A stretch of DNA of 25,763 nt from Candidatus Hodarchaeota archaeon (GCA_016839815.1 JAEOTM010000083.1:1-25763), one strand, 5' to 3'; positions 2 to 25,134 are shown, counted from the stretch's first letter. Numbers and translations are program-made. Notes: a model not told the origin generated them from the sequence alone.

Positions 2-1915
2 AAAATCAGGGATAATTTCAATTTCATCTTCAGGAATATCAATAACTTCTTCATCAGACTTATCTTCAATTTCATCTATTACCGGAGGAAGAGCTAGGGG
101 TTGATCTTCATTAATGTAGAATGAATCCTCGGATCCAGTTAGTAATAATCTACCCTCGTTTCCACCTTCTTTACATGTGAGAATAAATGTTGGATCTTTT
201 TCCAACGCTAGTACATTCGACATACGAAAATGATAATAATCATTTAGTTTTGCCTGCAAAGTGAGTATATGCTCTAAGTCTTCAAGAATGGCCGTACGAT
301 TCCCTTCATTCACATTGAAACCAAAAATATTCATCAATGTTCCTTTTGGTGTCTCTAAGGCTGAAATAAAGGGCATATTCAAAGCAAAATAACGTCCGTT
401 ATGTTCAATTTCTGTGGCTGCCATGAAAGGTAATTTTAAGTTGAAATATCTAGCTTTTTTGTCGTCTGGAAGACGCCTTTCAACTTCAATAGCTTCTATT
501 GATCCAAATTTGAATAAATGAGAACCAGGCTCTTCAATTACCTTAATTCCTGGAAAATTGAATTCCTTTTTATCATGTGTTGTCTCTACTCCATATTTCC
601 ACTTAATAAGATCATAATTTTCTTGGATCCGACCGAGTCCCGCAGTATTGAATTTATTCTTGTAAACAGTCAGAGAACTAGTAAGTTCATCTTTTAAATC
701 TGGTAAGGAGGAAATAGAAGTGTTATATTTTGTGATATCCAAGTCACGCAATTTCTCTGAATTCATTCGTTTAGAAATATTATCCCATTCTTTTTTTGAA
801 AGCATAAAAGTCGCTTTCTCAACAGATTCTTTTTGAAGTCTTCCAAGTGAATCTTTTAAAGTAAAAGACAAATTTCCTAATGCTTCGAGTGTTACAATGT
901 CATCTGACATGCCCAATGGTACTAAAATTGTGTTTTTTCCAGCATTAAAATCGGAAGAACCCTTTTTGAATAGATTCATTTGCTTGTCTGTAATAAAGAC
1001 ATTTTCAGGCTCAGAAAAATCCAATTCATTTAATTGTGATCCGATTTCTTTGGTTTTTTCAAGTGATTTTTTATACATCGATTCTATAAACGGAGGTGTT
1101 TTATCATGAACTACTAGTAAAACTAAGCCAATTAAAAACATAAATGGGATAGCTTCATTCCAAAAATTGTATGTAAACTCGTGAAAAATGAATTCTAGTA
1201 TAAATAGAGTGACAGTTGCTCCAAGAAGAGAGTCACGAAAATTTACGACTGGATTTCTTTTCGAAAGAGAATTAGTTAGGGGGTTGAAAGAGAAGGGAAA
1301 TAGTGACACTAGAAGATATATCATAAGAGAATTAAGCATAAAATCTTCCCATAAAGGCCCGTACACGGGTATCGACTCAGATAGTATATCAATTGCTTTG
1401 AACAAATATAATCCTACACCCATTATCCAAAATCCCCTAGTAGCACTTTTAATGAATGCTTGGTATCCAGAAAACCCAAATTTCGTCAATAAAAATAAAC
1501 GAATACTATTGATGAAGCTGGAGATAAGAAAAACTGTTAACAAAATAAATGTTTCAAATATGAAGTAGGCCATACTGAATGGGAGCTCGAAATCCAAATC
1601 AGGAATATCCGTACTAACGAAAGCGGTAATAAAAAATGAAATTATAAATAATTTAAGGGTTGATCCCGCAAGATAAAGTTTCTGATTTTTCCATTTCTTT
1701 TCAAGATTACTTATGATCAAGAATGAAATTGTTAAAGCAAATGATCCTGCACGAAATAGCGGTTCCTGTTTAATAAACACTGATGAACCAAACCACAATG
1801 TAAGAAATAACATATAAAGACTATCCAAAGTACCTCGTGGTTGTATAAAGTCACCTATTGCTCTAGATGTATATTTACTCATATACTGCGCTGCATCAAT
1901 TCCTGGTAAAGCCAT
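2..1915 (-). CDS. Large hypothetical membrane protein, partial (runs off left edge, >=638 aa); multi-TM N-terminal half, soluble C-terminal half, acidic end
   Basis: Manual translation from ATG at 1915 (MALPGIDAAQYMSKY...) stays open to position 2. Many hydrophobic stretches in the first ~270 aa; ends ...DEIEDKSDEEVIDIPEDEIEIIPDF. Absent from the ORF track because no stop lies in the window. Confidence 0.88.
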   Translation of the reverse strand, partial: MALPGIDAAQYMSKYTSRAIGDFIQPRGTLDSLYMLFLTLWFGSSVFIKQEPLFRAGSFALTISFLIISNLEKKWKNQKLYLAGSTLKLFIISFFITAFVSTDIPDLDFELPFSMAYFIFETFILLTVFLISSFINSIRLFLLTKFGFSGYQAFIKSATRGFWIMGVGLYLFKAIDILSESIPVYGPLWEDFMLNSLMIYLLVSLFPFSFNPLTNSLSKRNPVVNFRDSLLGATVTLFILEFIFHEFTYNFWNEAIPFMFLIGLVLLVVHDKTPPFIESMYKKSLEKTKEIGSQLNELDFSEPENVFITDKQMNLFKKGSSDFNAGKNTILVPLGMSDDIVTLEALGNLSFTLKDSLGRLQKESVEKATFMLSKKEWDNISKRMNSEKLRDLDITKYNTSISSLPDLKDELTSSLTVYKNKFNTAGLGRIQENYDLIKWKYGVETTHDKKEFNFPGIKVIEEPGSHLFKFGSIEAIEVERRLPDDKKARYFNLKLPFMAATEIEHNGRYFALNMPFISALETPKGTLMNIFGFNVNEGNRTAILEDLEHILTLQAKLNDYYHFRMSNVLALEKDPTFILTCKEGGNEGRLLLTGSEDSFYINEDQPLALPPVIDEIEDKSDEEVIDIPEDEIEIIPDF

Positions 1916-2162
1916 TTTTAATTTACTATCCTTTCTAAATAAAATCCGATCAATAATTTAGGTACGTGGATGTCCTTAAGGAAACTCTATTTTGAATAAG
2001 TTCCGAAGAACCTTTTAATTATAGTTTTTGTGGTAAAAAAAATACAGAAAAATGTATGAATTTATTTAGAAAAGTCATCTTATACAGTTTTTCTTTATCA
2101 TATTCTCGGAATTAACATCTGTTAAGTTAGTCTATTATCTATAATAACTATAATATAATGTC

Positions 2163-2176
2163 GAAAGGTTTTTAAC
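2163..2176 (+). promoter_or_regulatory. Putative BRE/TATA core promoter of the dsrE-tusA-hdrA/qmo block
   Basis: GAAAGG-TTTTTAAC about 120 nt upstream of dsrE; near-identical GAAGG-TTTTTAAT upstream of tusA2 (8431-8443). Confidence 0.5.
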
Positions 2177-2204
2177 TCAATGTAAATAACCCAAGGTTGA
2201 CTAC
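2168..2204 (+). promoter_or_regulatory. Triple SurR-box-like operator array
   Basis: GTTtttAAC-tcaat-GTAaatAAC-ccaag-GTTgacTAC: three GTT-n3-AAC-like units with 5-nt spacers. Confidence 0.7.
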
Positions 2205-2294: not shown

Positions 2295-2717
2295 ATGGAA
2301 GAAGAAACTGAAAAAATCACCATTGTAGTTTTTTCAGGCGCAGTTGACAGATTGGTTGGGATGTCAATCCTAACAAACGCTGCTATTGCAATGGACTATG
2401 CAGTAGACATTTTCTTAATGTTTTGGGGTACATATGCTTTCAAGAAAGACGTGTTACTTACAAATAACACACTGAGTGAACACTTGGACTTTACTGGAGA
2501 AAAATTTATTGATGCATTAAAGACTGGTGGTATCTCCCCTTGGTATGAAATGCTAAAGCAAGCAAAAGAATATGGAAATGTGAATGTATATGTCTGTTCT
2601 GCCTGCGGTAAAGCATGGCAGGCTAAACTGGAAGACTTAGAATTTGTTGATGATTTTGTAGGTGCTGGTGAAATAGTGTATACCAGTACACAATCAAAAG
2701 CAACCTATTTTATCTAA
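2295..2717 (+). CDS. dsrE: DsrE/DsrF-like (DsrE2-type) sulfurtransferase
   Basis: IVVFSG..D, IFLMFWG, VYVCSAC (active-site Cys region), VGAG and terminal TYFI are typical of the DsrE2/DrsE-like family; next to tusA. Confidence 0.85.
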   Translation: MEEETEKITIVVFSGAVDRLVGMSILTNAAIAMDYAVDIFLMFWGTYAFKKDVLLTNNTLSEHLDFTGEKFIDALKTGGISPWYEMLKQAKEYGNVNVYVCSACGKAWQAKLEDLEFVDDFVGAGEIVYTSTQSKATYFI

Positions 2718-2739
2718 AAAACGAAATGAGGTGCTAATT

Positions 2740-2991
2740 ATGGCTGAAGATTTAGTAAATATGAAATCAGATCATCTGGTTGATGCCCGTGCGGAAAGTT
2801 GTCCTGGTCCTTTACTAGCGGCAAAAAAAGCAATGACGAAAGTCCCTATGGATGGTATTCTCGAAGTTTGGTCTGCGGATGCAGGTACAAAACGTGATAT
2901 TCCTCTATGGTGTAAAAAGATCGGTCATGAATACCTAGGTGACGTTGAAGACAAGGGTTATTTTAAAATTTTCGTAAAACGTAAAAGGTAA
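2740..2991 (+). CDS. tusA: TusA/SirA-family sulfur carrier (copy 1)
   Basis: VDARAESCPGP (D-x5-CPxP), D.GT..DIP.W, about 83 aa; GAGGTG SD-like sequence precedes ATG 2740. Confidence 0.93.
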   Translation: MAEDLVNMKSDHLVDARAESCPGPLLAAKKAMTKVPMDGILEVWSADAGTKRDIPLWCKKIGHEYLGDVEDKGYFKIFVKRKR

Positions 2992-3005
2992 GTCTATTTG
3001 TTTAT

Positions 3006-3037
3006 AGAGACGGGTCCAAAACCCTTTTCTCTTTTTT
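3006..3037 (+). terminator. Putative hairpin plus T-tract terminator/attenuator after tusA1
   Basis: AGAGA-c-GGGT ccaaa ACCC-ttt-TCTCT running into T6. Confidence 0.5.
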
Positions 3038-3104
3038 AACTAACAGTGTACAAAACTTGACCTACTATACTAAAAAAATTCGTTATCGGTTTAAAGTGAT
3101 TTGA

Positions 3105-3512
3105 ATGACTCGAAAAAGTGAAGATCAACCAAAAATACTTATTTTTACTACAAATTTAATTTCTGATCCTGCAGTAGATCAAACCGGGCTACTTCATAAA
3201 CATTATACAGCATCTACTTCTCTAATTCGTGTTCCATGTTCTAGCATGGTTAGAGCTGATTTTGTATTACTTGCCCTCCAAAGTGGTTTTGATGGGGTTT
3301 TTATTACTGCTGATGGTGGCGATTGTCCATTTACTGAGAAATGTCCAGAAAAAACCTCTGATAGAATCCAAGAAGCAGTCGAGCTTCTTGAGAGTAATAA
3401 CATTGACGTTAATAGGTTGAAAATGGCCGCAATCTGTTCTGTATGTGTTGAACCATTTTTAAATCATGTTAAAACCTTTTCTGAAAAATTGAAAGGATTA
3501 AATGCATCTTAA
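3105..3512 (+). CDS. mvhD: MvhD/FlpD-family iron-sulfur protein, atypical cysteine pattern
   Basis: PKILIF, IRVPCS, GFDGV and RL motifs align with the canonical MvhD at 18300-18743, but the N-terminal CxxC is absent. Confidence 0.8.
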   Translation: MTRKSEDQPKILIFTTNLISDPAVDQTGLLHKHYTASTSLIRVPCSSMVRADFVLLALQSGFDGVFITADGGDCPFTEKCPEKTSDRIQEAVELLESNNIDVNRLKMAAICSVCVEPFLNHVKTFSEKLKGLNAS

Positions 3513-3529
3513 TAAAGGTAGGTTTGACT

Positions 3530-4831
3530 ATGAGTAAAGATTATGATGAATATGATACTTTGATAATAGGCGCTGGAATAGCAGGGATAGAAGCGGCGCT
3601 TACTTTAGGAGATTCAGGTCGAAATGTCCTACTCGTTGAAGAATCCCCTACAGTTGGAGGTAAAATGGCGCAATTAAGTAAGGTTTTTCCTACCCTTGAT
3701 TGCAGTGCATGTATTGCCACCCCAAAAATGGCTAGTGTTGTATATCACCCCAATGTGACCTTATTATCTTATTCTTCAATAGATGAAGTTATAAAACAGG
3801 ACGAAGCGGATTTTAGAGCAAAAATCACTATGAAACCAAAATATGTGGAATGGGATGATTGTACTGGTTGTTCACTGTGCGAGATGGCTTGTCCAGTTAT
3901 CGTAAGCGATGAATATCAGTATCATATGAGAGGAAGGAAGGCTGTGTATATTGCATTTGATATTGCTGTCCCTAAAAAATCTGTGGTTGATATTGAGAAT
4001 TGCATATTTTGTGGTGCATGTGAAAAAGCCTGCCCTACCAGTGCAATCAATTTCCTTCAGAAAGCTGTTACTAAAAAAGTTCGAGTAAAATCTGTTCTAC
4101 TCACCACAGGATTTGAATTGTTTGATGCTACGCTGAAACCCGATTTTGGGTATGGTCAAAGTAAGAATATAATAACCGCAATGCAAATGGATCGGTTATT
4201 AGCCCCAACTAGACCATATAATACTGTTCAACGTCCCTCTGACGGAAAAGAACCGGGAAAAATAGCTTATTTGTATTGTGTAGGCAGTCGTGATAAAACT
4301 GTGGGGAACGAGCTCTGTTCTCAAATCTGTTGTATGTATTCAATTAAACAATCCCAATTAATCCTTGGAGCCTTACCACTAGCTGATGTATTTTCATTTT
4401 ATATAGACATCCGAGCCCAAGGTAAAGGTTTTGAGGAATTTTATCAACAAGCAAAGGATATGGGTGCTTTCTTCATCAAAGGACGAATTATGTACGTAGA
4501 TGAAGAAGAAAATGGAGATGTCCTAGTAAAATATGAAGATATTGATGATGGAGGGAAAATAAAGGAAGAAGCTTTTGATTTAGTTGTTTTAGCTGTTGGT
4601 CTTTGGCCATCAATAGCTGGCATTGCTAATGTGTTCAAGAATGTTCAACTGGAAACTGATGAAATAGGGTGGGTTGAATGCCCGTTGTGTAACCCTGTTG
4701 AAACAAATGTTCCAGGAATTTTCGCAGCAGGATGTGTGACTGGTCCTAAAGATATTCCTGATACAATTGTAGAAGCAAACGCAGCTGTTTCGCAATGTTT
4801 AGCTTATATTGAAACACACAATGGAGAGTAA
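3530..4831 (+). CDS. hdrA: HdrA-like flavoprotein, core module with inserted 2x[4Fe-4S] (QmoA-like position)
   Basis: GAGIAG FAD motif, KVFPTLDCSAC, CTGCSLCEMACP and CIFCGACEKACP, CVGSRD...CSQICC, AGCVTGPKDI; lacks the HdrA N-terminal domain and C-terminal ferredoxin. Confidence 0.9.
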   Translation: MSKDYDEYDTLIIGAGIAGIEAALTLGDSGRNVLLVEESPTVGGKMAQLSKVFPTLDCSACIATPKMASVVYHPNVTLLSYSSIDEVIKQDEADFRAKITMKPKYVEWDDCTGCSLCEMACPVIVSDEYQYHMRGRKAVYIAFDIAVPKKSVVDIENCIFCGACEKACPTSAINFLQKAVTKKVRVKSVLLTTGFELFDATLKPDFGYGQSKNIITAMQMDRLLAPTRPYNTVQRPSDGKEPGKIAYLYCVGSRDKTVGNELCSQICCMYSIKQSQLILGALPLADVFSFYIDIRAQGKGFEEFYQQAKDMGAFFIKGRIMYVDEEENGDVLVKYEDIDDGGKIKEEAFDLVVLAVGLWPSIAGIANVFKNVQLETDEIGWVECPLCNPVETNVPGIFAAGCVTGPKDIPDTIVEANAAVSQCLAYIETHNGE

Positions 4832-4836
4832 AAGAA

Positions 4837-6573
4837 ATGTCAAAAGAATCAAAAAAACGTATAGGAGTCTATGTTTGTCATTGTGGTGGAAATATTTCAG
4901 ATGTTGTAGATGTTAAAACTGTTGCTGAAGAAGCAGAAAAACATCCAAATGTTGCTCTTGGAAAAGAATTCATGTTTATGTGTTCTGATGCTGGCCAACA
5001 AATGATTGTTGATGATATTAAAGAGCAAAACCTTGACGGACTTGTAGTAGCATCATGTTCCCCTAAATTACATGAAATAACGTTTATGAATGTTGCTGAA
5101 AGAGCAGGCCTAAATCCTTACGAATTTTATCATGTAAATATCAGGGAAGATGCATCATGGCCTCATTCTGATGATCCTAAAGGAGCAACCGAAAAAGCAA
5201 TTCGTATGGTTAATGCTGGCATTGAATATGTTAAACTAACTTCTCCACTAGCAAAAATTCAGGTTAATACTACTAAAAGAGTTTTAATAATTGGCTGCGG
5301 AATTGCAGGTGTAAGAGCAGCAGTAGATTTAGCTAGAATGAATATAGATGTTGTTTTAGTAGAAAAAGAAGATGTACTCGGAGGATATACCCCTAATATC
5401 TATAAAACTTATCCTGAGGGTAAAACAGGGGTAGAAATTCGAGATGAAATGGTTGATCAATTGAACGAATCTGAAGACAAAATCGAACTCTATACTAATT
5501 CTGAGGTTTCTGGTGTATCCGGTTATATCGGAAATTTTGTTGTACAAATCAAGAATAAAAATTCGGGGCAGGAAATACAAAAATCGATAGGAATCATAAT
5601 TGTTTCAACTGGTTTTAAATCTTATATTCCTAAAGATGGAGAATATGAATATAATAGCCATAAAAATGTTATTACGTTACCTGATTTTATGAAGCTTCTA
5701 AACAAGCATGAAAATACCGAGGAACTCTTCATAAATGGCCAAAACATCAATAAAATCGGATTCATTTATTGTGTTGGTTCAAGACAGCAAAATGTTGGAG
5801 GGGATGAACCAGTTAATGAGTATTGCTCACGATTTTGTTGTAATGCTACAATATTTCTTACAACAGAACTTCAGAAAAGATTTCCGAAACTCTATAGTTA
5901 CCATTTTTACCAAGATATCCGAACATATGGTAAAAACGAAGCTCATTATCTAACAGCTAGAGAAAATGGTGCAGTATTCCTTAAATATGATCCATATACA
6001 CCAGTAGAGGTTGATACAACGAGCGAAGGCATTAATGTTACCATCATGGATATACTTACTGAAAAGGAAAAGATCACTGTTCCTCTTGACCTACTCGTGC
6101 TCGTTACTGGAATGGAAGCAAGAGAGAATAAAAAATTAGAGGAATTAATAAAAATCTCTCCTGGTCTCGATCGGTTTTACAAAGAATCTCACCCTAAACT
6201 TAAACCAGTAGAAACAGGAAGAATGGGAATTCTTCTTGGTGGAACATCCCAAGCCCCTAGGGATATTTCCGAGACGTTAGCTTCTGCTTCTGCCGCAGCA
6301 GCAAAAGCTGCGAGTTTTGTGTTAAAGGGGGAATTAATGTTAGAACCTGCAGTTGCAACTGTTGATCCTAATATCTGTGAGAATCATCAGAAGTGTATAC
6401 CTGAATGTCCCACGAATGCTATCGAAACCCAAGATGAAAAAGCTGTTGTTAATGAAGCATTATGTATAGGATGTGCAATTTGTACAGCTGTATGTCCAAC
6501 AGAGGCTATTCAGATAAAAACTCTTACGACAACTCAGATCAGGGAAATGATTAAATCTATGGCGAAATCATAA
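4837..6573 (+). CDS. hdrA: HdrA-like flavoprotein with N-terminal FeS domain and C-terminal ferredoxin (QmoB-like, no fused MvhD)
   Basis: VYVCHCG...MCS...SCSP, GCGIAG, CVGSR...CSRFCC, HPKLKPVET, C-terminal CENHQKCIPECP and CIGCAICTAVCP. Confidence 0.9.
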   Translation: MSKESKKRIGVYVCHCGGNISDVVDVKTVAEEAEKHPNVALGKEFMFMCSDAGQQMIVDDIKEQNLDGLVVASCSPKLHEITFMNVAERAGLNPYEFYHVNIREDASWPHSDDPKGATEKAIRMVNAGIEYVKLTSPLAKIQVNTTKRVLIIGCGIAGVRAAVDLARMNIDVVLVEKEDVLGGYTPNIYKTYPEGKTGVEIRDEMVDQLNESEDKIELYTNSEVSGVSGYIGNFVVQIKNKNSGQEIQKSIGIIIVSTGFKSYIPKDGEYEYNSHKNVITLPDFMKLLNKHENTEELFINGQNINKIGFIYCVGSRQQNVGGDEPVNEYCSRFCCNATIFLTTELQKRFPKLYSYHFYQDIRTYGKNEAHYLTARENGAVFLKYDPYTPVEVDTTSEGINVTIMDILTEKEKITVPLDLLVLVTGMEARENKKLEELIKISPGLDRFYKESHPKLKPVETGRMGILLGGTSQAPRDISETLASASAAAAKAASFVLKGELMLEPAVATVDPNICENHQKCIPECPTNAIETQDEKAVVNEALCIGCAICTAVCPTEAIQIKTLTTTQIREMIKSMAKS

Positions 6574-6590
6574 CTGAAGGTGTTCTTAAG

Positions 6591-6899
6591 ATGAGTCAAG
6601 AAAGTAATGAAAAATCGAGAGAGAAAAAGAAAACACTAACGGTTAGAGAATACAAAAAACAAACTGGTGCAACCATTAGTGAAGAACTAAAGGAACGAAA
6701 TAAAAAGAATAACAAAACCCGAAAAGCTATTTTTAAAGCAATGGAGGACGGACCAAAAACTGTTCCTGAAATTTCACTTGAATCTGGAATCCCTTCCCAT
6801 GAAGTCTTGTGGCATGTGGCAACTAGCTTGCGTTATCGGTTGGTTGAACCAGTAGAAAAAACTGATGAGGACTACTGGAAGTATAAACTAAGTAAATAG
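6591..6899 (+). CDS. Small winged-helix (wHTH) protein with basic N-terminus
   Basis: RKAIFKAMEDGPKTVPEIS..SGIPSHEVLWHV...LVE...YWKY matches a wHTH pattern; tightly spaced within the operon. Confidence 0.7.
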   Translation: MSQESNEKSREKKKTLTVREYKKQTGATISEELKERNKKNNKTRKAIFKAMEDGPKTVPEISLESGIPSHEVLWHVATSLRYRLVEPVEKTDEDYWKYKLSK

Positions 6900-6907
6900 G
6901 TGAATTA

Positions 6908-8053
6908 GTGATGGTTGTTGCAGATCAGAGTATTACTGTTAATACAGAAGTTTTTGAGAATATTAAAAAGATGGGAGCTTTTGATGTCTCTGCTTGCATG
7001 AACTGTGGTATGTGTACTGTTTCATGTCCACTATCAGTTTCTGGAAACGAATTTCCTCGAAAATTAATAAGATATGCAGTTCTAGGATTGGATGAGAAGC
7101 TAGTTTCACATCCAGAACCGTGGTTGTGCTATTATTGTGGGGATTGTTCCGAACAATGCCCAAGTGAAGCTGAACCGGGAGAATTTATGATGGCAACCCG
7201 ACGGTATTTGACCTCAAGATATGATTGGACTGGTTTGTCAAAGAAATTTTACCTTTCAGAAAAATGGGAAATTGGAGCTCTTATTGGATTAGCACTCCTA
7301 TTCTTAGGTATTTTTATTGTCGCAAATCTTACAGGAATTAGTAAAATGCAGGGAGATAATGTATCGATTGATACTTTCGCCCCGATTGATTGGATCCATC
7401 TTGGTGATCTCATTCTAGGCGGGACGTTGGCTATTTTTTTACTTTCCAATGCTTTTAGAATGTTTTATTACATCATACTGAATGATAAAAGTGTTAAAGT
7501 ACCAATTAAGCTTTATTTCACAGAGATAAAGGCATATATTGTAGCTGGATTCAGTCTTGTTGCTCAATATCGATGGTTATCGTGTGATAATAGATGGCGA
7601 TGGTTAAAACATTTATTCCTCATGACTGGTTATATCACAATTTTCACTCTTGTTGTTGTATTTATTGATATATTTCAAGTAGATGATACAAGTTGGAACA
7701 TAACCTCACTTTTAGGGTACTATGGTACAGTCGCATTATTGTTCGTAACTCTTGAAGCAATGTGGAGCCGATACAAAAAGAAAGAACAGATGCATAAATT
7801 TTCCCACCCAACAGATTGGTTATTTTTAATACTTCTATTTTTAACTGCAACAACAGGTATTCTTTTGCATTTATTCCGTCTTATGAACTTTGCATATCCG
7901 AGTTATTATATTTACGTTATTCATATCATGATTGCGGGACCCATGTTAATAATAGAAGTCCCATTCGGCAAATGGTCACATATGCTTTATCGGCCACTCG
8001 CAGTTTATTTAGCAACAGTAAAGGAAAAAGCTATCAGTATAGCAGGATCATAA
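6908..8053 (+). CDS. qmoC: QmoC-like subunit: HdrC-like 2x[4Fe-4S] domain fused to a NarI/HdrE-like cytochrome-b membrane domain
   Basis: CMNCGMCTVSCP, FPRKLIRY, WLCYYCGDCSEQCP; about 6 hydrophobic segments with histidines (KHLF, LLHL, VIHI, PFGKWSHMLYRP). Confidence 0.85.
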   Translation: MMVVADQSITVNTEVFENIKKMGAFDVSACMNCGMCTVSCPLSVSGNEFPRKLIRYAVLGLDEKLVSHPEPWLCYYCGDCSEQCPSEAEPGEFMMATRRYLTSRYDWTGLSKKFYLSEKWEIGALIGLALLFLGIFIVANLTGISKMQGDNVSIDTFAPIDWIHLGDLILGGTLAIFLLSNAFRMFYYIILNDKSVKVPIKLYFTEIKAYIVAGFSLVAQYRWLSCDNRWRWLKHLFLMTGYITIFTLVVVFIDIFQVDDTSWNITSLLGYYGTVALLFVTLEAMWSRYKKKEQMHKFSHPTDWLFLILLFLTATTGILLHLFRLMNFAYPSYYIYVIHIMIAGPMLIIEVPFGKWSHMLYRPLAVYLATVKEKAISIAGS

Positions 8054-8060
8054 GATGTGA

Positions 8061-8297
8061 AAACTAGTGAATTTAGAGTGGTAACTAGTTTAAAAGCAAG
8101 AAAACCTGAAAGAAGCGTGAGTAATCTAATAAATTCATCGAACTACTAATACTTAACAAATTCTAATAGAATTTAAATCAATGTTATTAGATTCTTTCAC
8201 TCTTTTACAATAATTTTCATTCTTGTCCCCCTCTTGGGGTAAATAGTATTTTACGTTTGAACTTCACTATAGATTCACTATAGTTTACTTAGGGGGA
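8061..8297. repeat. Cluster of inverted repeats and a short direct repeat in a 570-bp intergenic region
   Basis: AAACTAGT/ACTAGTTT (8061/8084); AATCTAATAA/TTATTAGATT (8123/8184); AAATTCTA-A-TAGAATTT (8158-8174); TCCCCCT/AGGGGGA (8226/8291); TTCACTATAG x2 (8263, 8274). Confidence 0.55.
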
Positions 8298-8430
8298 AAT
8301 ATCGCGTAACATCAATATTGAGTATTGATGATCATAAGAGGACTTTTGCACTTGCAGATAGAAATTAAATTATGAAGCTAATATAATATAAAAGATAAGA
8401 GAAACGCATTTTTGGTGAAATGATGCGACA

Positions 8431-8444
8431 GAAGGTTTTTAATT
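8431..8444 (+). promoter_or_regulatory. Putative BRE/TATA promoter of tusA2-yedE
   Basis: GAAGG-TTTTTAATT, similar to 2163-2176. Confidence 0.5.
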
Positions 8445-8457
8445 AAATAGCTTTATT

Positions 8458-8494
8458 GTTGTTAACTAGACGTAAATAACTTTGAGTTATTAGC
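8458..8494 (+). promoter_or_regulatory. Triple SurR-box-like operator array
   Basis: GTTgttAAC-tagac-GTAaatAAC-tttga-GTTattAGC; same architecture and identical middle unit as 2168-2204. Confidence 0.72.
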
Positions 8495-8622
8495 AGATAG
8501 CAAGTACGCACACGTTTCACTCTATATAGCCAATAGGCACAGAATTCATCTGTTAATTTCTCTATGAAATATTTATGTTTTGTATATTTCAAAAACTTAA
8601 CTCAATAAAGGATAGACAAAAT

Positions 8623-8853
8623 ATGGTAGAAGCTAACCTGACATTGGACTGTAAAGGTCTTTCATGTCCAATGCCAATTGTAAAACTAAACGCAACCATT
8701 AAAAAAATCGAAGTTGGACAAGTGCTAGAGATGCTCGGAACTGATCCAGGTTCCAAAAAGGATGTACCTCTTTGGTGCCAAAAAACTGGAAATGAATTAC
8801 TAGAGACAATCGATGAAAGTGGCGTGTTCAGGTTTTATATCCGAAAAAAATAA
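8623..8853 (+). CDS. tusA: TusA/YeeD/YedF-family sulfur carrier (copy 2)
   Basis: LDCKGLSCPMP, TDPGSKKDVPLWC; ATG 8623 gives a typical 76-aa protein; directly upstream of the YedE-type transporter. Confidence 0.93.
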   Translation: MVEANLTLDCKGLSCPMPIVKLNATIKKIEVGQVLEMLGTDPGSKKDVPLWCQKTGNELLETIDESGVFRFYIRKK

Positions 8854-8867
8854 ATGAGGTTTTGTTT

Positions 8868-10085
8868 ATGTCAGAAAAAGGAATGTTTAGTGGTCTTTAT
8901 GACACTTTATTCGGCGATTCATGGAAGATGTGGATTGGGGCAATTATTCTATCTTTTTTTAGTATCTGTCTCTTCATAATCATGTCTCCTTGGGGCGCTT
9001 CAGGTGGTGTTCTTAACTGGGGTGACAATATTATTAAACCCCTTGTTGGTGAAACCGCTACTGAAATTACTAAGCATCGATATGCAATGTTGAATATTAC
9101 GATTGTGATCGGAGCTTTTTCCAGTGCATTACTAGCAAAGCAGTTTGCTCTTCGAATTCCTCCATTAGGAGAGCTTTTGAAAGGGTTAATTGGTGGTTTG
9201 TTAATTGGTATTGGTTCAATAATAGGGAGTTCCTGTACTCTTGGAGGTTTTTACAGCGGATGGCCAGCAATGTCGGTTGGTGCTCTTATCTTCACATTAG
9301 GATTAATAATCGGGACTTTCGTTGCTGTTTATTATCTAATGTGGGAAGCTGAAAAATACCCAGGTATTAGCAGCGGGACAACAAAAACTCTTCTGAGTAC
9401 CGGTAGCTGGCAACCCTATGTTGGAATAATTATGTTCATTGTAGGACTTGGATTCCTCTTCCTATTTCCAACTACTCCAGAGAAAATTCTTGAAGGATCC
9501 CTTGTTATGATGGGATTTACCTTTTTTGGACTCCTAATCGGATTTGTTCTTCAAAGATCAAGATTCTGCATAGTTAGAGCTTTGAGAGAACCATTCATGA
9601 CTGGTGAAACATCCGCAACTACTGCTGTTTTCGCTGGTATCATTGTGGGACTTCTTGGATTTGTTGCAATGAAGCTCTGCGGTTTTGGTACAGGCGCTTC
9701 ACAGACAATGTTTGTTTTTGGGAATGTTTGGATTTCCGGTTTAATAGGTGGAATCATATTTGGTGTAGGAATGACAATCGCAGGCGGTTGTGTTGTAGGT
9801 TCACTATGGCGTGCAGGTGAAGGTCAAGTCAAACTTTGGTTTTCAGTTATTGGAATGGTTATTGCCATGCCACTAACGAATTCTTTCAAAACACAGTTCT
9901 TAGAATGGACTGGTGGTAAAGCAAACATTACTGATGCAATGTATCTTCCAGATATCTTCTTTGATATCTTTGATGATCTTCTTCTCAGTTATTTAGGCGC
10001 AGTACTTTTCATTCTATTCCTAATACTGCTCTGGTTCATTGTAGTAAAATGGAATGAGAAATCAGGAAAACTCTCCCGAATGTGA
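8868..10085 (+). CDS. yedE: YeeE/YedE-family sulfur-compound transporter (YedE-like domain order)
   Basis: Polytopic, Gly-rich; PWGASG, SSCTLGG, QRSRFCIV, AGGCVVGSLWRAGEG contain the three family cysteines; GAGGT before ATG 8868. Confidence 0.9.
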   Translation: MSEKGMFSGLYDTLFGDSWKMWIGAIILSFFSICLFIIMSPWGASGGVLNWGDNIIKPLVGETATEITKHRYAMLNITIVIGAFSSALLAKQFALRIPPLGELLKGLIGGLLIGIGSIIGSSCTLGGFYSGWPAMSVGALIFTLGLIIGTFVAVYYLMWEAEKYPGISSGTTKTLLSTGSWQPYVGIIMFIVGLGFLFLFPTTPEKILEGSLVMMGFTFFGLLIGFVLQRSRFCIVRALREPFMTGETSATTAVFAGIIVGLLGFVAMKLCGFGTGASQTMFVFGNVWISGLIGGIIFGVGMTIAGGCVVGSLWRAGEGQVKLWFSVIGMVIAMPLTNSFKTQFLEWTGGKANITDAMYLPDIFFDIFDDLLLSYLGAVLFILFLILLWFIVVKWNEKSGKLSRM

Positions 10086-10134: not shown

Positions 10135-10303
10135 ATCTCAAAGCGTGATGCATTGCTTTTCTCGATATACCGTTCGAGGAGGAGACATCTGAAATAAAAA
10201 TGATATTTTCTGATTGATTGATCCAAAATCTCTGATCTAGGAACATTTATATCATCATTCAGGCAGCTAACAGACACAAAAGAAATTCGATAAGTTGAGT
10301 GCA

Positions 10304-11071
10304 ATGGATAAATATGATTGTAGTTTGAGTCATCCGATTTATGATCTTCTATCTAATAAAACCAGGCTAGAAATATTAAGATTAATTGCCTGTGAAAAAA
10401 ACTATGGTAGCAGAATTGCTTCTATTTTAAAAATATCTGCCCCTGCAATTCATAGGCATTTGAAAATTCTTTCTGGAAAGGTGGAAAGTGAGGATATTGG
10501 TGAGTTTGCGTTTCTAAAATCTTCTGAGACCACACGAGAAAGTTATTCTGGACACAAAGGTGCAGAGGCCACTATGTATGAGATAGGGTCCAAATTATTT
10601 CTTACATTTGCAATCTATCCGAATTTCGTACACTCACACGCATTTCTCACTCCAGTTAAAGATGAAATAGCAATTACGGATCAAAAGACTCAATCCCAAA
10701 AGAAAAAAGAAAAAACTAGTAAATCAGAAGACAAAGCGGAAATTAAACGTAATTTTACAAATATATATAATAAGATCCAAGAAAAAAATGATCAGATCAA
10801 TAAGCTTGAACAAGAAATCCTTCAGATCTTTTTAGAGAAAGATGAGCTAATGAAACAATTGGATGAAGCAATTTTGGAAAAAGATCATTTGCTTGATTAT
10901 GATGAACGAGTTAGTATACGTACATTAGCATGTCAGGGGCCTAATTGCATTCCAAATCTGCCTGAACTTCTAAAACAAGATGAGGAACTGGTTAAAAAGA
11001 TTCTTCGAAATCTTAAAAGCCAAAATTGGTTTGATATTCTCGATGAAAAGATAAACTACAAGACTTCCTGA
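10304..11071 (+). CDS. ArsR-superfamily regulator with SurR-like architecture (wHTH - coiled coil - wHTH)
   Basis: N-terminal LLSNKTRLEILRLIACEKNY...ISAPAIHRHLKIL, then YEI...FAIYP, heptad-rich coil, C-terminal helix-turn-helix-like segment; 255 aa. Confidence 0.8.
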   Translation: MDKYDCSLSHPIYDLLSNKTRLEILRLIACEKNYGSRIASILKISAPAIHRHLKILSGKVESEDIGEFAFLKSSETTRESYSGHKGAEATMYEIGSKLFLTFAIYPNFVHSHAFLTPVKDEIAITDQKTQSQKKKEKTSKSEDKAEIKRNFTNIYNKIQEKNDQINKLEQEILQIFLEKDELMKQLDEAILEKDHLLDYDERVSIRTLACQGPNCIPNLPELLKQDEELVKKILRNLKSQNWFDILDEKINYKTS

Positions 11072-24744: not shown

Positions 24745-25134
24745 ATGTCCTATGAAATAGATAAAAGTGTAAAGTACTTTAAAGAACACCAGTGGGTTAG
24801 AGTTAAGGAGGAGGATGGTTCCGTTCTAATTGGAATCTCGGATTTTGCTCAAAAATCTCTAAAGGATATTGTTATGGTTGAACCTCCAGAAGTTGGAGAT
24901 ACTCTCACCTTTGGAGAGGTTTTTGCCTCAATTGAAAGTGTAAAAGCAGTTAGTGATGTGTATAGCCCCATCTCTGGCGAAGTAATCGAAATTAACGAAG
25001 ACGTTGAAGATGAACCAGAGAAAATAAATGAAGATCCCTATGGTTCATGGATTGTCCGAGTCAAACCTTCTGATCTTCAAACTGATTTGGGTAAGCTCAT
25101 GAGCCCAGAAGAATATGAAAATTTCTGTAAGTAA
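24745..25134 (+). CDS. gcvH: Glycine cleavage H-protein-family lipoyl carrier
   Basis: HQWV, GISDFAQ..L.DIV, lipoylation motif IESVKAVSDVYSPISGEV, INEDPYG.W. Confidence 0.95.
   Translation: MSYEIDKSVKYFKEHQWVRVKEEDGSVLIGISDFAQKSLKDIVMVEPPEVGDTLTFGEVFASIESVKAVSDVYSPISGEVIEINEDVEDEPEKINEDPYGSWIVRVKPSDLQTDLGKLMSPEEYENFCK

Follow-up and report, generated by a model that had tools for sequence, protein, structure and literature searches.

Gene content of the cluster

The contig JAEOTM010000083.1 (positions 1-25763) of a Candidatus Hodarchaeota archaeon (GCA_016839815.1) carries at positions 2295-8053 seven genes that encode a DsrE-like sulfur transferase, a TusA sulfur carrier, an MvhD-type protein, two HdrA-like flavoproteins, a small winged-helix protein and a QmoC-like membrane subunit. 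The contig, which was analysed over its whole length of 25,763 nucleotides and is referred to here as the window, is contig C25 of a 4.24 Mb metagenome-assembled genome (MAG) consisting of 206 contigs (89.5% complete, 7.8% contamination). The nearest named relatives of the window proteins are found in Hodarchaeales/Hodarchaeota and other Asgard archaea. The original prediction for this DNA had described the region 2295-10085 as an undescribed system, a membrane-anchored Qmo/Hdr-like complex coupled to a DsrE/TusA sulfur relay and a YedE importer. The gene calls in the window were checked with Pfam and NCBIfam models, and all ten genes listed in that prediction were found at their places.

The first gene of the cluster (2295-2717, plus strand, as are all seven) encodes a DsrE-like protein with the active-site residue Cys101 that matches Pfam DsrE/DrsE_2 with 31 bits. 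Its best solved relative is 2QS7 (1e-20), the DsrE2B protein of S. solfataricus (PMC11094781), so that the product is regarded as DsrE2B-like. The second gene (2731-2991) encodes the sulfur carrier TusA1 with Cys24 in a CPGP motif (Pfam TusA, PF01206, 68 bits). It is followed by a gene (3105-3512) whose product, referred to as MvhD', has the FlpD fold over its full length (PF02662, 85.4 bits) and contains the pair Cys111-x-x-Cys114. The next two genes encode HdrA-like flavoproteins. Flavoprotein A (3524-4831) has a FAD domain, an inserted 2x[4Fe-4S] ferredoxin domain and a CX12-17CX3CC cluster motif, and flavoprotein B (4837-6573) has an N-terminal four-cysteine domain, a FAD domain and a C-terminal 2x[4Fe-4S] domain. 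For both of them the methanogen HdrA2 is the best NCBIfam family match, with 445 bits for A and 486 bits in two stretches for B, both below the model cut-off of 1100 bits. The sixth gene (6591-6899) encodes the cysteine-free protein s of 102 amino acids (aa), which has a predicted winged-helix fold and belongs with the flavoproteins and the membrane subunit to a split A-B-s-C module.

The last gene (6908-8053) encodes the QmoC-like membrane subunit, in which an HdrC-like 2x[4Fe-4S] domain is joined to a predicted haem-b-type membrane domain. Eight Fe-S cysteines and no fewer than five hydrophobic segments were recognised in the protein, together with the conserved histidines His235, His300, His321, His339 and His358, and its Fe-S domain matches HdrC in the PDB. 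With its HdrC-like part joined to a predicted dihaem membrane domain, this subunit and the two HdrA-like proteins make up the domain set of canonical QmoABC. The gaps between the seven genes measure 5-17 nt, with the exception of 113 nt before mvhD'. No CCG/HdrB domain was detected with Pfam within 2295-10085.

Conservation of the cluster and the cysteine switch in MvhD'

Relatives of the QmoC-like protein were detected in at least 594 species when one genome per species was scanned. The best 80 of the loci of these relatives were mapped by tblastn and open reading frame calling. About 40 of the 80 loci have the order TusA-MvhD'-HdrA-HdrA-small protein-QmoC, with DsrE located before TusA or just after QmoC (type 1). 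The hosts belong to the Chloroflexota, Planctomycetota, Bacteroidota, Verrucomicrobiota, Krumholzibacteriota, Acidobacteriota, Desulfobacterales, Hodarchaeota and Hermodarchaeota, and the order spans more than ten bacterial phyla besides the two archaeal groups. TusA lies directly upstream of mvhD' in every intact type-1 locus and DsrE nearly always lies inside the cluster, which bears out the linkage of tusA and dsrE claimed in the original prediction. The seven-gene order was also identified, by a search with the MvhD' variant, in a cultured strain, Vulcanisaeta sp. JCM 14467 (L119, 9275-15146), and in a Fervidicoccaceae MAG. Vulcanisaeta sp. JCM 14467 is a hyperthermophilic archaeon, and the overlap of its small protein gene with both neighbouring genes suggests translational coupling. 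Clustering of the neighbouring open reading frames showed the families of the cluster itself (A, B, C, s, D, T and E) to be the only ones conserved around it. Genes for ArsR, LysR, sigma-54 and response-regulator proteins recur among the other neighbours, and no CCG/HdrB gene is conserved near the cluster in the surveyed loci. In a sub-variant of the TusA-linked loci (L041, L045, L078, L079, L080 and L084) the first HdrA-like protein has 900-960 aa owing to an insertion or fusion of about 450 aa.

Three further arrangements were recognised. In the Acidobacteriota the order is HdrA(B)-MvhD-MvhG-MvhA-HdrA(A)-small protein-QmoC, accompanied by the hydrogenase protease HycI (type 2). This arrangement was observed at L018, L019, L032, L036, L053, L062 and L069, in Acidobacteriota and mislabelled MAGs, and connects a [NiFe] hydrogenase of the group 3c type to the membrane module found in type 1. 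The gene content suggests an H2:quinone enzyme that is possibly bifurcating. In this cluster mvhG-mvhA replace tusA/dsrE, and therefore the slot occupied by TusA and DsrE is regarded as the redox-partner slot. In the Desulfobacterales a QmoC fusion of 760-790 aa with a long C-terminal extension is followed by HdrL-like proteins and MvhD (type 3). These loci (L012-L029 and others, including L023 of Desulfospira joergensenii) encode HdrL-like proteins of 1130-1150 aa and a canonical MvhD, and their QmoC-like proteins make up a well-supported clade of their own (25 rows) in the QmoC tree. In Promethearchaeota and Odinarchaeota the order is hdrD-hdrA(1039 aa)-mvhD-QmoC (type 4), with TusA and DsrE located 2 kb downstream in Odinarchaeota.

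The main new result of this analysis is a switch in the cysteines of the MvhD protein. The alignment comprised 23 TusA-linked MvhD' sequences and, for comparison, 17 MvhD sequences of types 2-4 together with the canonical copy encoded in the window. The MvhD proteins of types 2-4, which are linked to hydrogenase, HdrL or HdrD, keep the motifs FxCxWC, VMCSG, GCHxGDCHY and EWISASEG. All 23 TusA-linked MvhD' proteins lack most of the canonical cysteines, those of the Chloroflexota loci L054 and L055 retaining none, and all 23 carry IC[ST]VC in place of EWISASEG. In the window MvhD', Cys45 and Cys74 are the sole canonical cysteines left, and the pair C111xxC114 has been gained. Across 21 type-1 loci C111 and C114 are conserved without exception, C74 in 81% and C45 in 62%. 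The pattern holds among the database homologues of MvhD': 100 of 100 full-length sequences carry xC[STA]xC and none of them a canonical motif. The switch tracks the linkage to TusA and not the presence of HdrB.

The cysteines of the remaining proteins are also conserved in the type-1 loci. This applies to the Fe-S cysteines of both flavoproteins and the QmoC-like protein, among them all 14 cluster cysteines of flavoprotein A, to Cys24 of TusA (21 of 21) and to Cys101 of DsrE (17 of 17 cluster DsrE proteins). A CxxC or resolving-cysteine role in DsrE was considered and dropped, as Cys104 is not conserved among the cluster DsrE proteins.

The small protein gave no significant Pfam match, and the best hit of a PDB sequence search had an E value of 1.4. 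Its AlphaFold2 model (mean predicted local distance difference test score 87) consists of two N-terminal helices and a winged helix, and Foldseek returned MarR/ArsR/SmtB-type domains as structural neighbours. The fold search places the protein among winged-helix proteins and does not separate a regulator from a subunit, so that it may be either a subunit of the complex or an autoregulator. It is 36% identical to a bacterial counterpart at the same position, was recovered by clustering in 24 of 32 loci, and is free of cysteines in an alignment over 28 loci. It accompanies the split HdrA of types 1 and 2 and is not present in types 3 and 4. A profile search yielded 573 clusters at 50% identity, nearly all of them stand-alone proteins of 85-135 aa. 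Its occurrence among Asgard archaea is patchy: about 15 of 400 genomes gave strong full-length matches, as did 6 of 21 from the same genus. Weak partial matches in Asgard genomes (E 1e-6 to 1e-12), often to proteins of 230-260 aa, were judged generic winged-helix-like and excluded from this count.

The relation to the canonical Qmo complex was assessed with the curated qmoC model NF038018. The window protein scores 176.7 bits on this model, with a cut-off of 300. Three genomes of the sulfate-reducer type (Desulfospira joergensenii, one Desulfobacterales MAG and one Acidobacteriota MAG) contain a canonical qmoC of 359-495 bits, and a paralogue corresponding to the window gene (190-198 bits) lies elsewhere in each of them; the paralogues overall score 175-198 bits. 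In the two genomes where aprA was located as well, the canonical qmoC is found a few kb from it. In a quick maximum-likelihood tree a long branch separates the three canonical QmoC proteins, which group together with 100% support, from all 86 relatives, and the Asgard QmoC-like sequences lie within the bacterial ones as one supported clade. Because of its low score and its separate clade, the complex is not a bona fide Qmo, as had been predicted. The gene for the adenylylsulfate (APS) reductase subunit, aprA, scores above the cut-off in three of nine host genomes, namely the window MAG and eight others, and is absent from the window MAG and from five of the other eight. Genomes of Thermoguttaceae, Hodarchaeota and Chloroflexia contain the paralogue only and no aprA, and the same is true of the Hermodarchaeota and Phycisphaerae genomes; the Bacteroidales host carries aprA. 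The gene dsrA remained below the cut-off in the four hosts tested. Profile searches did not find aprA, dsrA or NIR_SIR in the window MAG (89.5% complete), which extends the absence of aprA and dsrA, noted earlier for the window, to the whole MAG. Independence from AprAB, implied by the original prediction, is therefore supported. That prediction would have to be given up if the proteins fell within a bona fide Qmo clade with aprAB at hand, or if dsrE and tusA were not linked to the cluster; what was found is a separate clade and a conserved linkage. A distinct, Apr-independent, TusA/DsrE-linked gene cluster of the Qmo/Hdr type is real and widespread in anaerobic lineages.

Regulation and genomic surroundings

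The seven genes are separated by a gap of 521 nt from two further genes on the plus strand. The first of them, tusA2 (8575-8853), encodes a YeeD/YedF-like TusA partner of the transporter (Pfam TusA, 89 bits). In its longest reading frame a second methionine (Met17, 8623) lies 16 codons in, and the TusA domain begins at residue 23; therefore the shorter form probably represents the real start. The second gene (8862-10085) encodes a transporter of the YedE/YeeE family for sulfur (or selenium) compounds with about nine hydrophobic segments. It satisfies the family-level Pfam model Sulf_transp (135.8 bits). On the NCBIfam YedE/TsuA models it reaches 108.7, 86.9 and 55.8 bits, where the respective cut-offs are 350, 400 and 645, and the best match at 108.7 bits is the YedE/FdhT selenium model. 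The importer had been predicted to be a part of the system. It is adjacent to the cluster in only 2 of the 80 surveyed loci and is missing in the nearest relative, the Hodarchaeota locus L007, where TusA2 is followed directly by the regulator. This part of the prediction is not supported; the importer is a local addition and not a component of the conserved core.

Downstream of the transporter, an ArsR/SurR-like two-domain regulator is encoded at 10295-11071 (plus strand). It matches HTH_5 and scores weakly on the SurR model (21.9 bits, cut-off 250). A SurR-like gene is adjacent to the cluster in C25, in contig C189 of the same MAG, in L007 and in the Hermodarchaeota locus L010. The original prediction had claimed the same operator at both gene blocks. 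The short and long SurR motifs of the Thermococcales are GTTn3AAC and GTTn3AAC(n5GTT) (PMC12162507), and the window boxes match them. The plain word GTTn3AAC occurs 7 times in the window, no more often than expected (7.8), and it was footprinting across genomes that sustained the claim. An extended word, CGAAAG-GTTTTTAAC-n5-GT(T/A), is found about 125 nt before dsrE, and tusA2 is preceded by a close variant of it. The box at dsrE (2160-2190, plus strand) reads CGAAAG GTTTTTAAC tcaat GTAAATAAC and recurs in L007, L010 and C189, and the boxes upstream of tusA2 (8430-8480, plus strand) are GTTTTTAAT, GTTGTTAAC and GTAAATAAC. Both dsrE and tusA2 are preceded by boxes in C25, C189 and L007, and dsrE alone in L010. 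These conserved SurR-type boxes make the sulfur-responsive regulon of the original prediction plausible. Because of the boxes and the adjacent SurR-like regulator, the expression of the operon and of the TusA2-YedE pair is probably switched by zero-valent sulfur (S0).

Contig C189 contains a second island (L103, 2775-19939; L104) that runs colinear with the whole window, the encoded proteins being 52-92% identical. Its dsrE-to-qmoC operon is inverted, so that dsrE and tusA2 diverge from a spacer of 377 nt with boxes on both sides and a tusA2 layout almost identical to that of the window. A QmoC-like gene is retained there after mvhD-hdrA(1040)-hdrD, and there is none at this place in C25. The C189 island is either a segmental duplication or the contribution of a co-binned relative, given the contamination of 7.8%. 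A third, divergent TusA-MvhD'-HdrA-HdrA-small protein-QmoC cluster, with a QmoC about 30% identical, is located on contig C45 (L105, 2882-15389) near genes for Lrp/AsnC regulators, an SQR/FCSD-like flavoprotein, two TusA proteins, DsrE and DsrE2. The cluster and its neighbours form a second sulfur-trafficking island. The MAG contains 11 TusA domains, MenA above the cut-off and one molybdopterin protein.

The absence of hdrB and hdrC, stated in the original prediction, holds for the block 2295-10085 and does not hold for its surroundings, where two sets of CCG proteins lie 1-13 kb downstream in the same conserved island. On the other strand an operon hdrB-hdrC-hdrA::mvhD-mvhA-mvhG with a hydrogenase protease gene starts 1.1 kb downstream of the block. 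Beyond it lies a second Hdr operon, hdrC-hdrB-hdrD-hdrA(1040 aa)-mvhD, with a divergent GcvH-like gene. This gene of the lipoate-carrier type (24745-25134, plus strand) adjoins the hdrD-hdrA-mvhD(-qmoC) cluster, and the same neighbour occurs at C189 33276-33653 and L003 4198-4593, on three Asgard contigs in all; the neighbourhood recalls the LbpA-sHdr pairing of sulfur oxidisers. At the opposite end of the window (2-1915, minus strand) an open frame of 638 aa without a Pfam match runs off the contig end. Its best relative within the MAG, 53% identical, is encoded on C163.

Proposed function and comparison with known systems

We propose that the seven genes 2295-8053 encode one membrane-anchored redox complex acting on sulfane sulfur held by TusA and DsrE. 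Judged from the sequences, we give this proposal about an even chance of being correct. Complex formation, the sulfur substrate, the role of the CxxC pair, the direction of the reaction and quinone as the carrier are what we infer. The QmoC-like subunit, with two [4Fe-4S] clusters and a membrane domain of the haem-b type, would connect the complex to the membrane quinone pool. The two HdrA-like FAD/Fe-S proteins would carry the electrons, and the presence of two flavins may permit coupling to a second carrier of low potential, for instance ferredoxin, while the winged-helix protein would serve as a structural or regulatory accessory. The redox partner would be the sulfane sulfur on TusA and DsrE and neither APS reductase nor a hydrogenase. 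This role of TusA and DsrE, and the likely role of the MvhD' CxxC pair as the hand-over point, are proposed because a hydrogenase fills the same slot in type 2. At the CxxC pair a TusA-persulfide could be taken up and resolved into H2S and a disulfide, or the reverse could take place, and the flavin/Fe-S chain of the HdrA-like proteins would recycle the dithiol/disulfide. Reduction of sulfane sulfur to H2S by quinol, with or without reduced ferredoxin, is slightly favoured over oxidation. A wider proposition, which we consider possible rather than probable, is that the cluster stands for a widespread but unrecognised class of two-flavin, quinone-coupled respiratory or bifurcating enzymes with protein-bound sulfane sulfur as substrate, in which MvhD', once a [2Fe-2S] electron carrier, would have become a CxxC sulfur/disulfide site that replaces HdrB, and that in Asgard archaea it would share a SurR-like S0 regulon with Mvh-Hdr.

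Several points weigh against the proposed complex. The cluster encodes no CCG/HdrB-type or known sulfur-reducing catalytic site, and we know of no precedent for a persulfide or disulfide role of the MvhD fold. Residues Cys45, Cys74, Cys111 and Cys114 of the window MvhD' could instead bind a rewired [2Fe-2S] cluster, which would make the protein a plain electron carrier, and HdrB, HdrC and HdrD of the same conserved island could be the real sulfur-handling sites. The linkage to YedE is not conserved. The quinol of menaquinone, at about -75 mV, is unable to reduce a persulfide unaided; therefore the reductive direction needs a second, hypothetical donor. The hydrogenase variant suggests an electron flow towards quinone, which favours oxidation. 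Finally, the absences in the window MAG are soft, because the MAG is incomplete and somewhat contaminated.

The closest alternative keeps the complex and its partners and reverses the flow, so that electrons would pass from sulfide or carrier-bound sulfane sulfur to quinone. Flavin-based bifurcation might then send some of the electrons to ferredoxin, and TusA and DsrE would accept the sulfane product, in the manner of an SQR loading a protein thiol. Electron flow from sulfide to menaquinone is downhill. An electron-donating Mvh hydrogenase fills the TusA/DsrE slot in the Acidobacteriota variant, the divergent cluster on C45 lies near the SQR/FCSD-like flavoprotein with TusA, DsrE and DsrE2, and a loosely similar cluster of Hdr, TusA and a transporter has been read as oxidative (PMC8542988). 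On the other hand, the MAG lacks the dsrA, aprA and NIR_SIR that would take the sulfane sulfur on to sulfite or sulfate, the SurR-type control and the neighbouring importer fit the use of external sulfur, and the hosts belong mostly to fermentative or anaerobic lineages. Vulcanisaeta, moreover, is a reducer of S0 and thiosulfate. We put the oxidative version at clearly less than an even chance. It is unlikely that the Qmo-like module serves merely as a membrane electron link while neighbouring CCG proteins perform the TusA/DsrE chemistry in the manner of sHdr or DsrK. The candidates would be HdrB/HdrC, encoded in the Mvh-Hdr operon, or HdrD/HdrB, encoded in the second operon together with the GcvH-like protein. 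Both Hdr operons are indeed found within the same island in C25 and C189, other Asgard archaea place the QmoC-like gene right after hdrD-hdrA-mvhD with TusA/DsrE 2 kb downstream in Odinarchaeota, and a model for Nerearchaeum assigns the reduction of the TusA/DsrE-persulfide to Mvh-Hdr (bioRxiv 10.1101/2025.07.22.663070). However, most bacterial and Thermoproteota hosts have no CCG gene conserved near the cluster, and the cysteine switch follows TusA rather than HdrB.

Two further explanations deny the sulfur carriers or the sulfur itself a part in the reaction. In one of them, the cluster would be a "type II" Qmo that has diverged but still works with APS reductase or a different soluble reductase, with TusA and DsrE as bystanders supplying sulfur for cofactors or Fe-S clusters. 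Type II Qmo has been assigned to the sulfate reducers V. moutnovskia and Ammonifex (PMC10504309), and three of the nine host genomes contain aprA. We consider this very unlikely, since a canonical qmoC stands near aprA where both were located and the paralogue elsewhere in the genome, six hosts are without aprA, TusA and MvhD' are adjacent in every case, and the CxxC switch goes with this linkage alone. Least probable of all is a selenium pathway, in which import and carriage of the YedE/YedF type would feed a flavoprotein complex that reduces selenium for selenophosphate synthesis. The YedE/FdhT model as the best NCBIfam match of the transporter (108.7 bits) and the weak matches of both TusA proteins to YedF models point in this direction, but all these scores are far below the cut-offs, YedE is rarely adjacent, the box type is sulfur-responsive in Thermococcales, and the genes contain no in-frame TGA.

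If the proposed function is correct, many fermenters and anaerobes without dsr, apr, psr or sHdr could exchange electrons of the quinone pool with zero-valent sulfur. Such hosts would include Anaerolineae, Bacteroidales, Planctomycetota, Acidobacteriota, Thermoproteota and Asgard archaea. The CxxC form would represent a new role for the MvhD fold, and many MAG annotations reading qmoABC would need correction. Membrane-linked sulfur energy metabolism would be present in the closest archaeal relatives of eukaryotes, and the ideas on hydrogen-sulfur syntrophy in eukaryogenesis would gain a concrete gene set. The presence of the cluster in a cultured Vulcanisaeta strain and in Desulfobacterales with culturable relatives offers an experimental entry.

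The designation "undescribed" of the original prediction has to be qualified. No description or test of the seven-gene cluster was found in the literature within our reach, which did not include paywalled work; however, type II Qmo has been named (PMC10504309) and two loosely similar models have been published. The model for the Asgard archaeon Nerearchaeum marumarumayae comprises H2/Mvh-Hdr-driven reduction of TusA/DsrE-persulfide with import by TsuA (bioRxiv 10.1101/2025.07.22.663070), and a Hdr-TST-TusA-transporter cluster of Cloacimonadota was interpreted as oxidative (PMC8542988). Both proposals involve a soluble Hdr and are without the QmoC-like anchor, the MvhD' CxxC pair or the seven-gene order. 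The SurR regulon of Thermococcales (PMC12162507) resembles the window in the GTTn3AAC(n5GTT) boxes at both promoters and in the adjacent ArsR-type regulator with two winged-helix domains between sulfur and hydrogenase genes. The window regulator differs in its low score on the SurR model, and its target genes are others, with no MBS or NSR. The YeeE/YeeD (TsuA/TsuB) systems and the YTD cluster (yedE-tusA-dsrE-chp), which has been linked to sulfur disproportionation (PMC12998232), likewise combine a YedE-family transporter with a TusA-like protein and DsrE nearby. The window transporter remains below every NCBIfam equivalog cut-off, and YedE is outside the conserved core.

Among the Hdr-type complexes, sHdr-LbpA with TusA/DsrE3 (PMC11094781) shares with the window the genetic tie of a Hdr-type complex to TusA/DsrE sulfane carriers. 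It is soluble and needs HdrB1/B2 and the lipoate-binding LbpA, whereas the window operon has a membrane anchor, no CCG subunit and, by its match to 2QS7, a DsrE2B-like protein instead of DsrE3. The MvhAGD-HdrABC complex of methanogens has HdrA-type flavoproteins and a subunit of the MvhD fold in common with the cluster, and the Acidobacteriota variant also contains MvhAG. The block in the window has no HdrB CCG site, its HdrC part is joined to a membrane domain, two genes take the place of a single hdrA, and MvhD' is without the canonical cysteines. The type II Qmo of V. moutnovskia and Ammonifex degensii is described as more closely related to HdrA than to the QmoAB of bacteria, as occurring with or without Apr/Dsr and as having no known function; the paper and its supplements do not mention TusA, MvhD or a small protein (PMC10504309). 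It is probably the same family as the cluster reported here, because the Vulcanisaeta isolate carries the exact seven genes; this assignment follows the published description. The type I QmoABC of sulfate reducers and Chlorobi is similar in having two HdrA-like proteins, an MvhD-type domain and an HdrC-like protein fused to a haem-b-type anchor, and in connecting a sulfur redox step in the cytoplasm with the quinone pool. The window cluster differs from it in the lack of the AprAB partner, in a separate mvhD gene with CxxC replacing the cluster motifs, in the extra winged-helix gene, and in the presence of TusA and DsrE within the operon.

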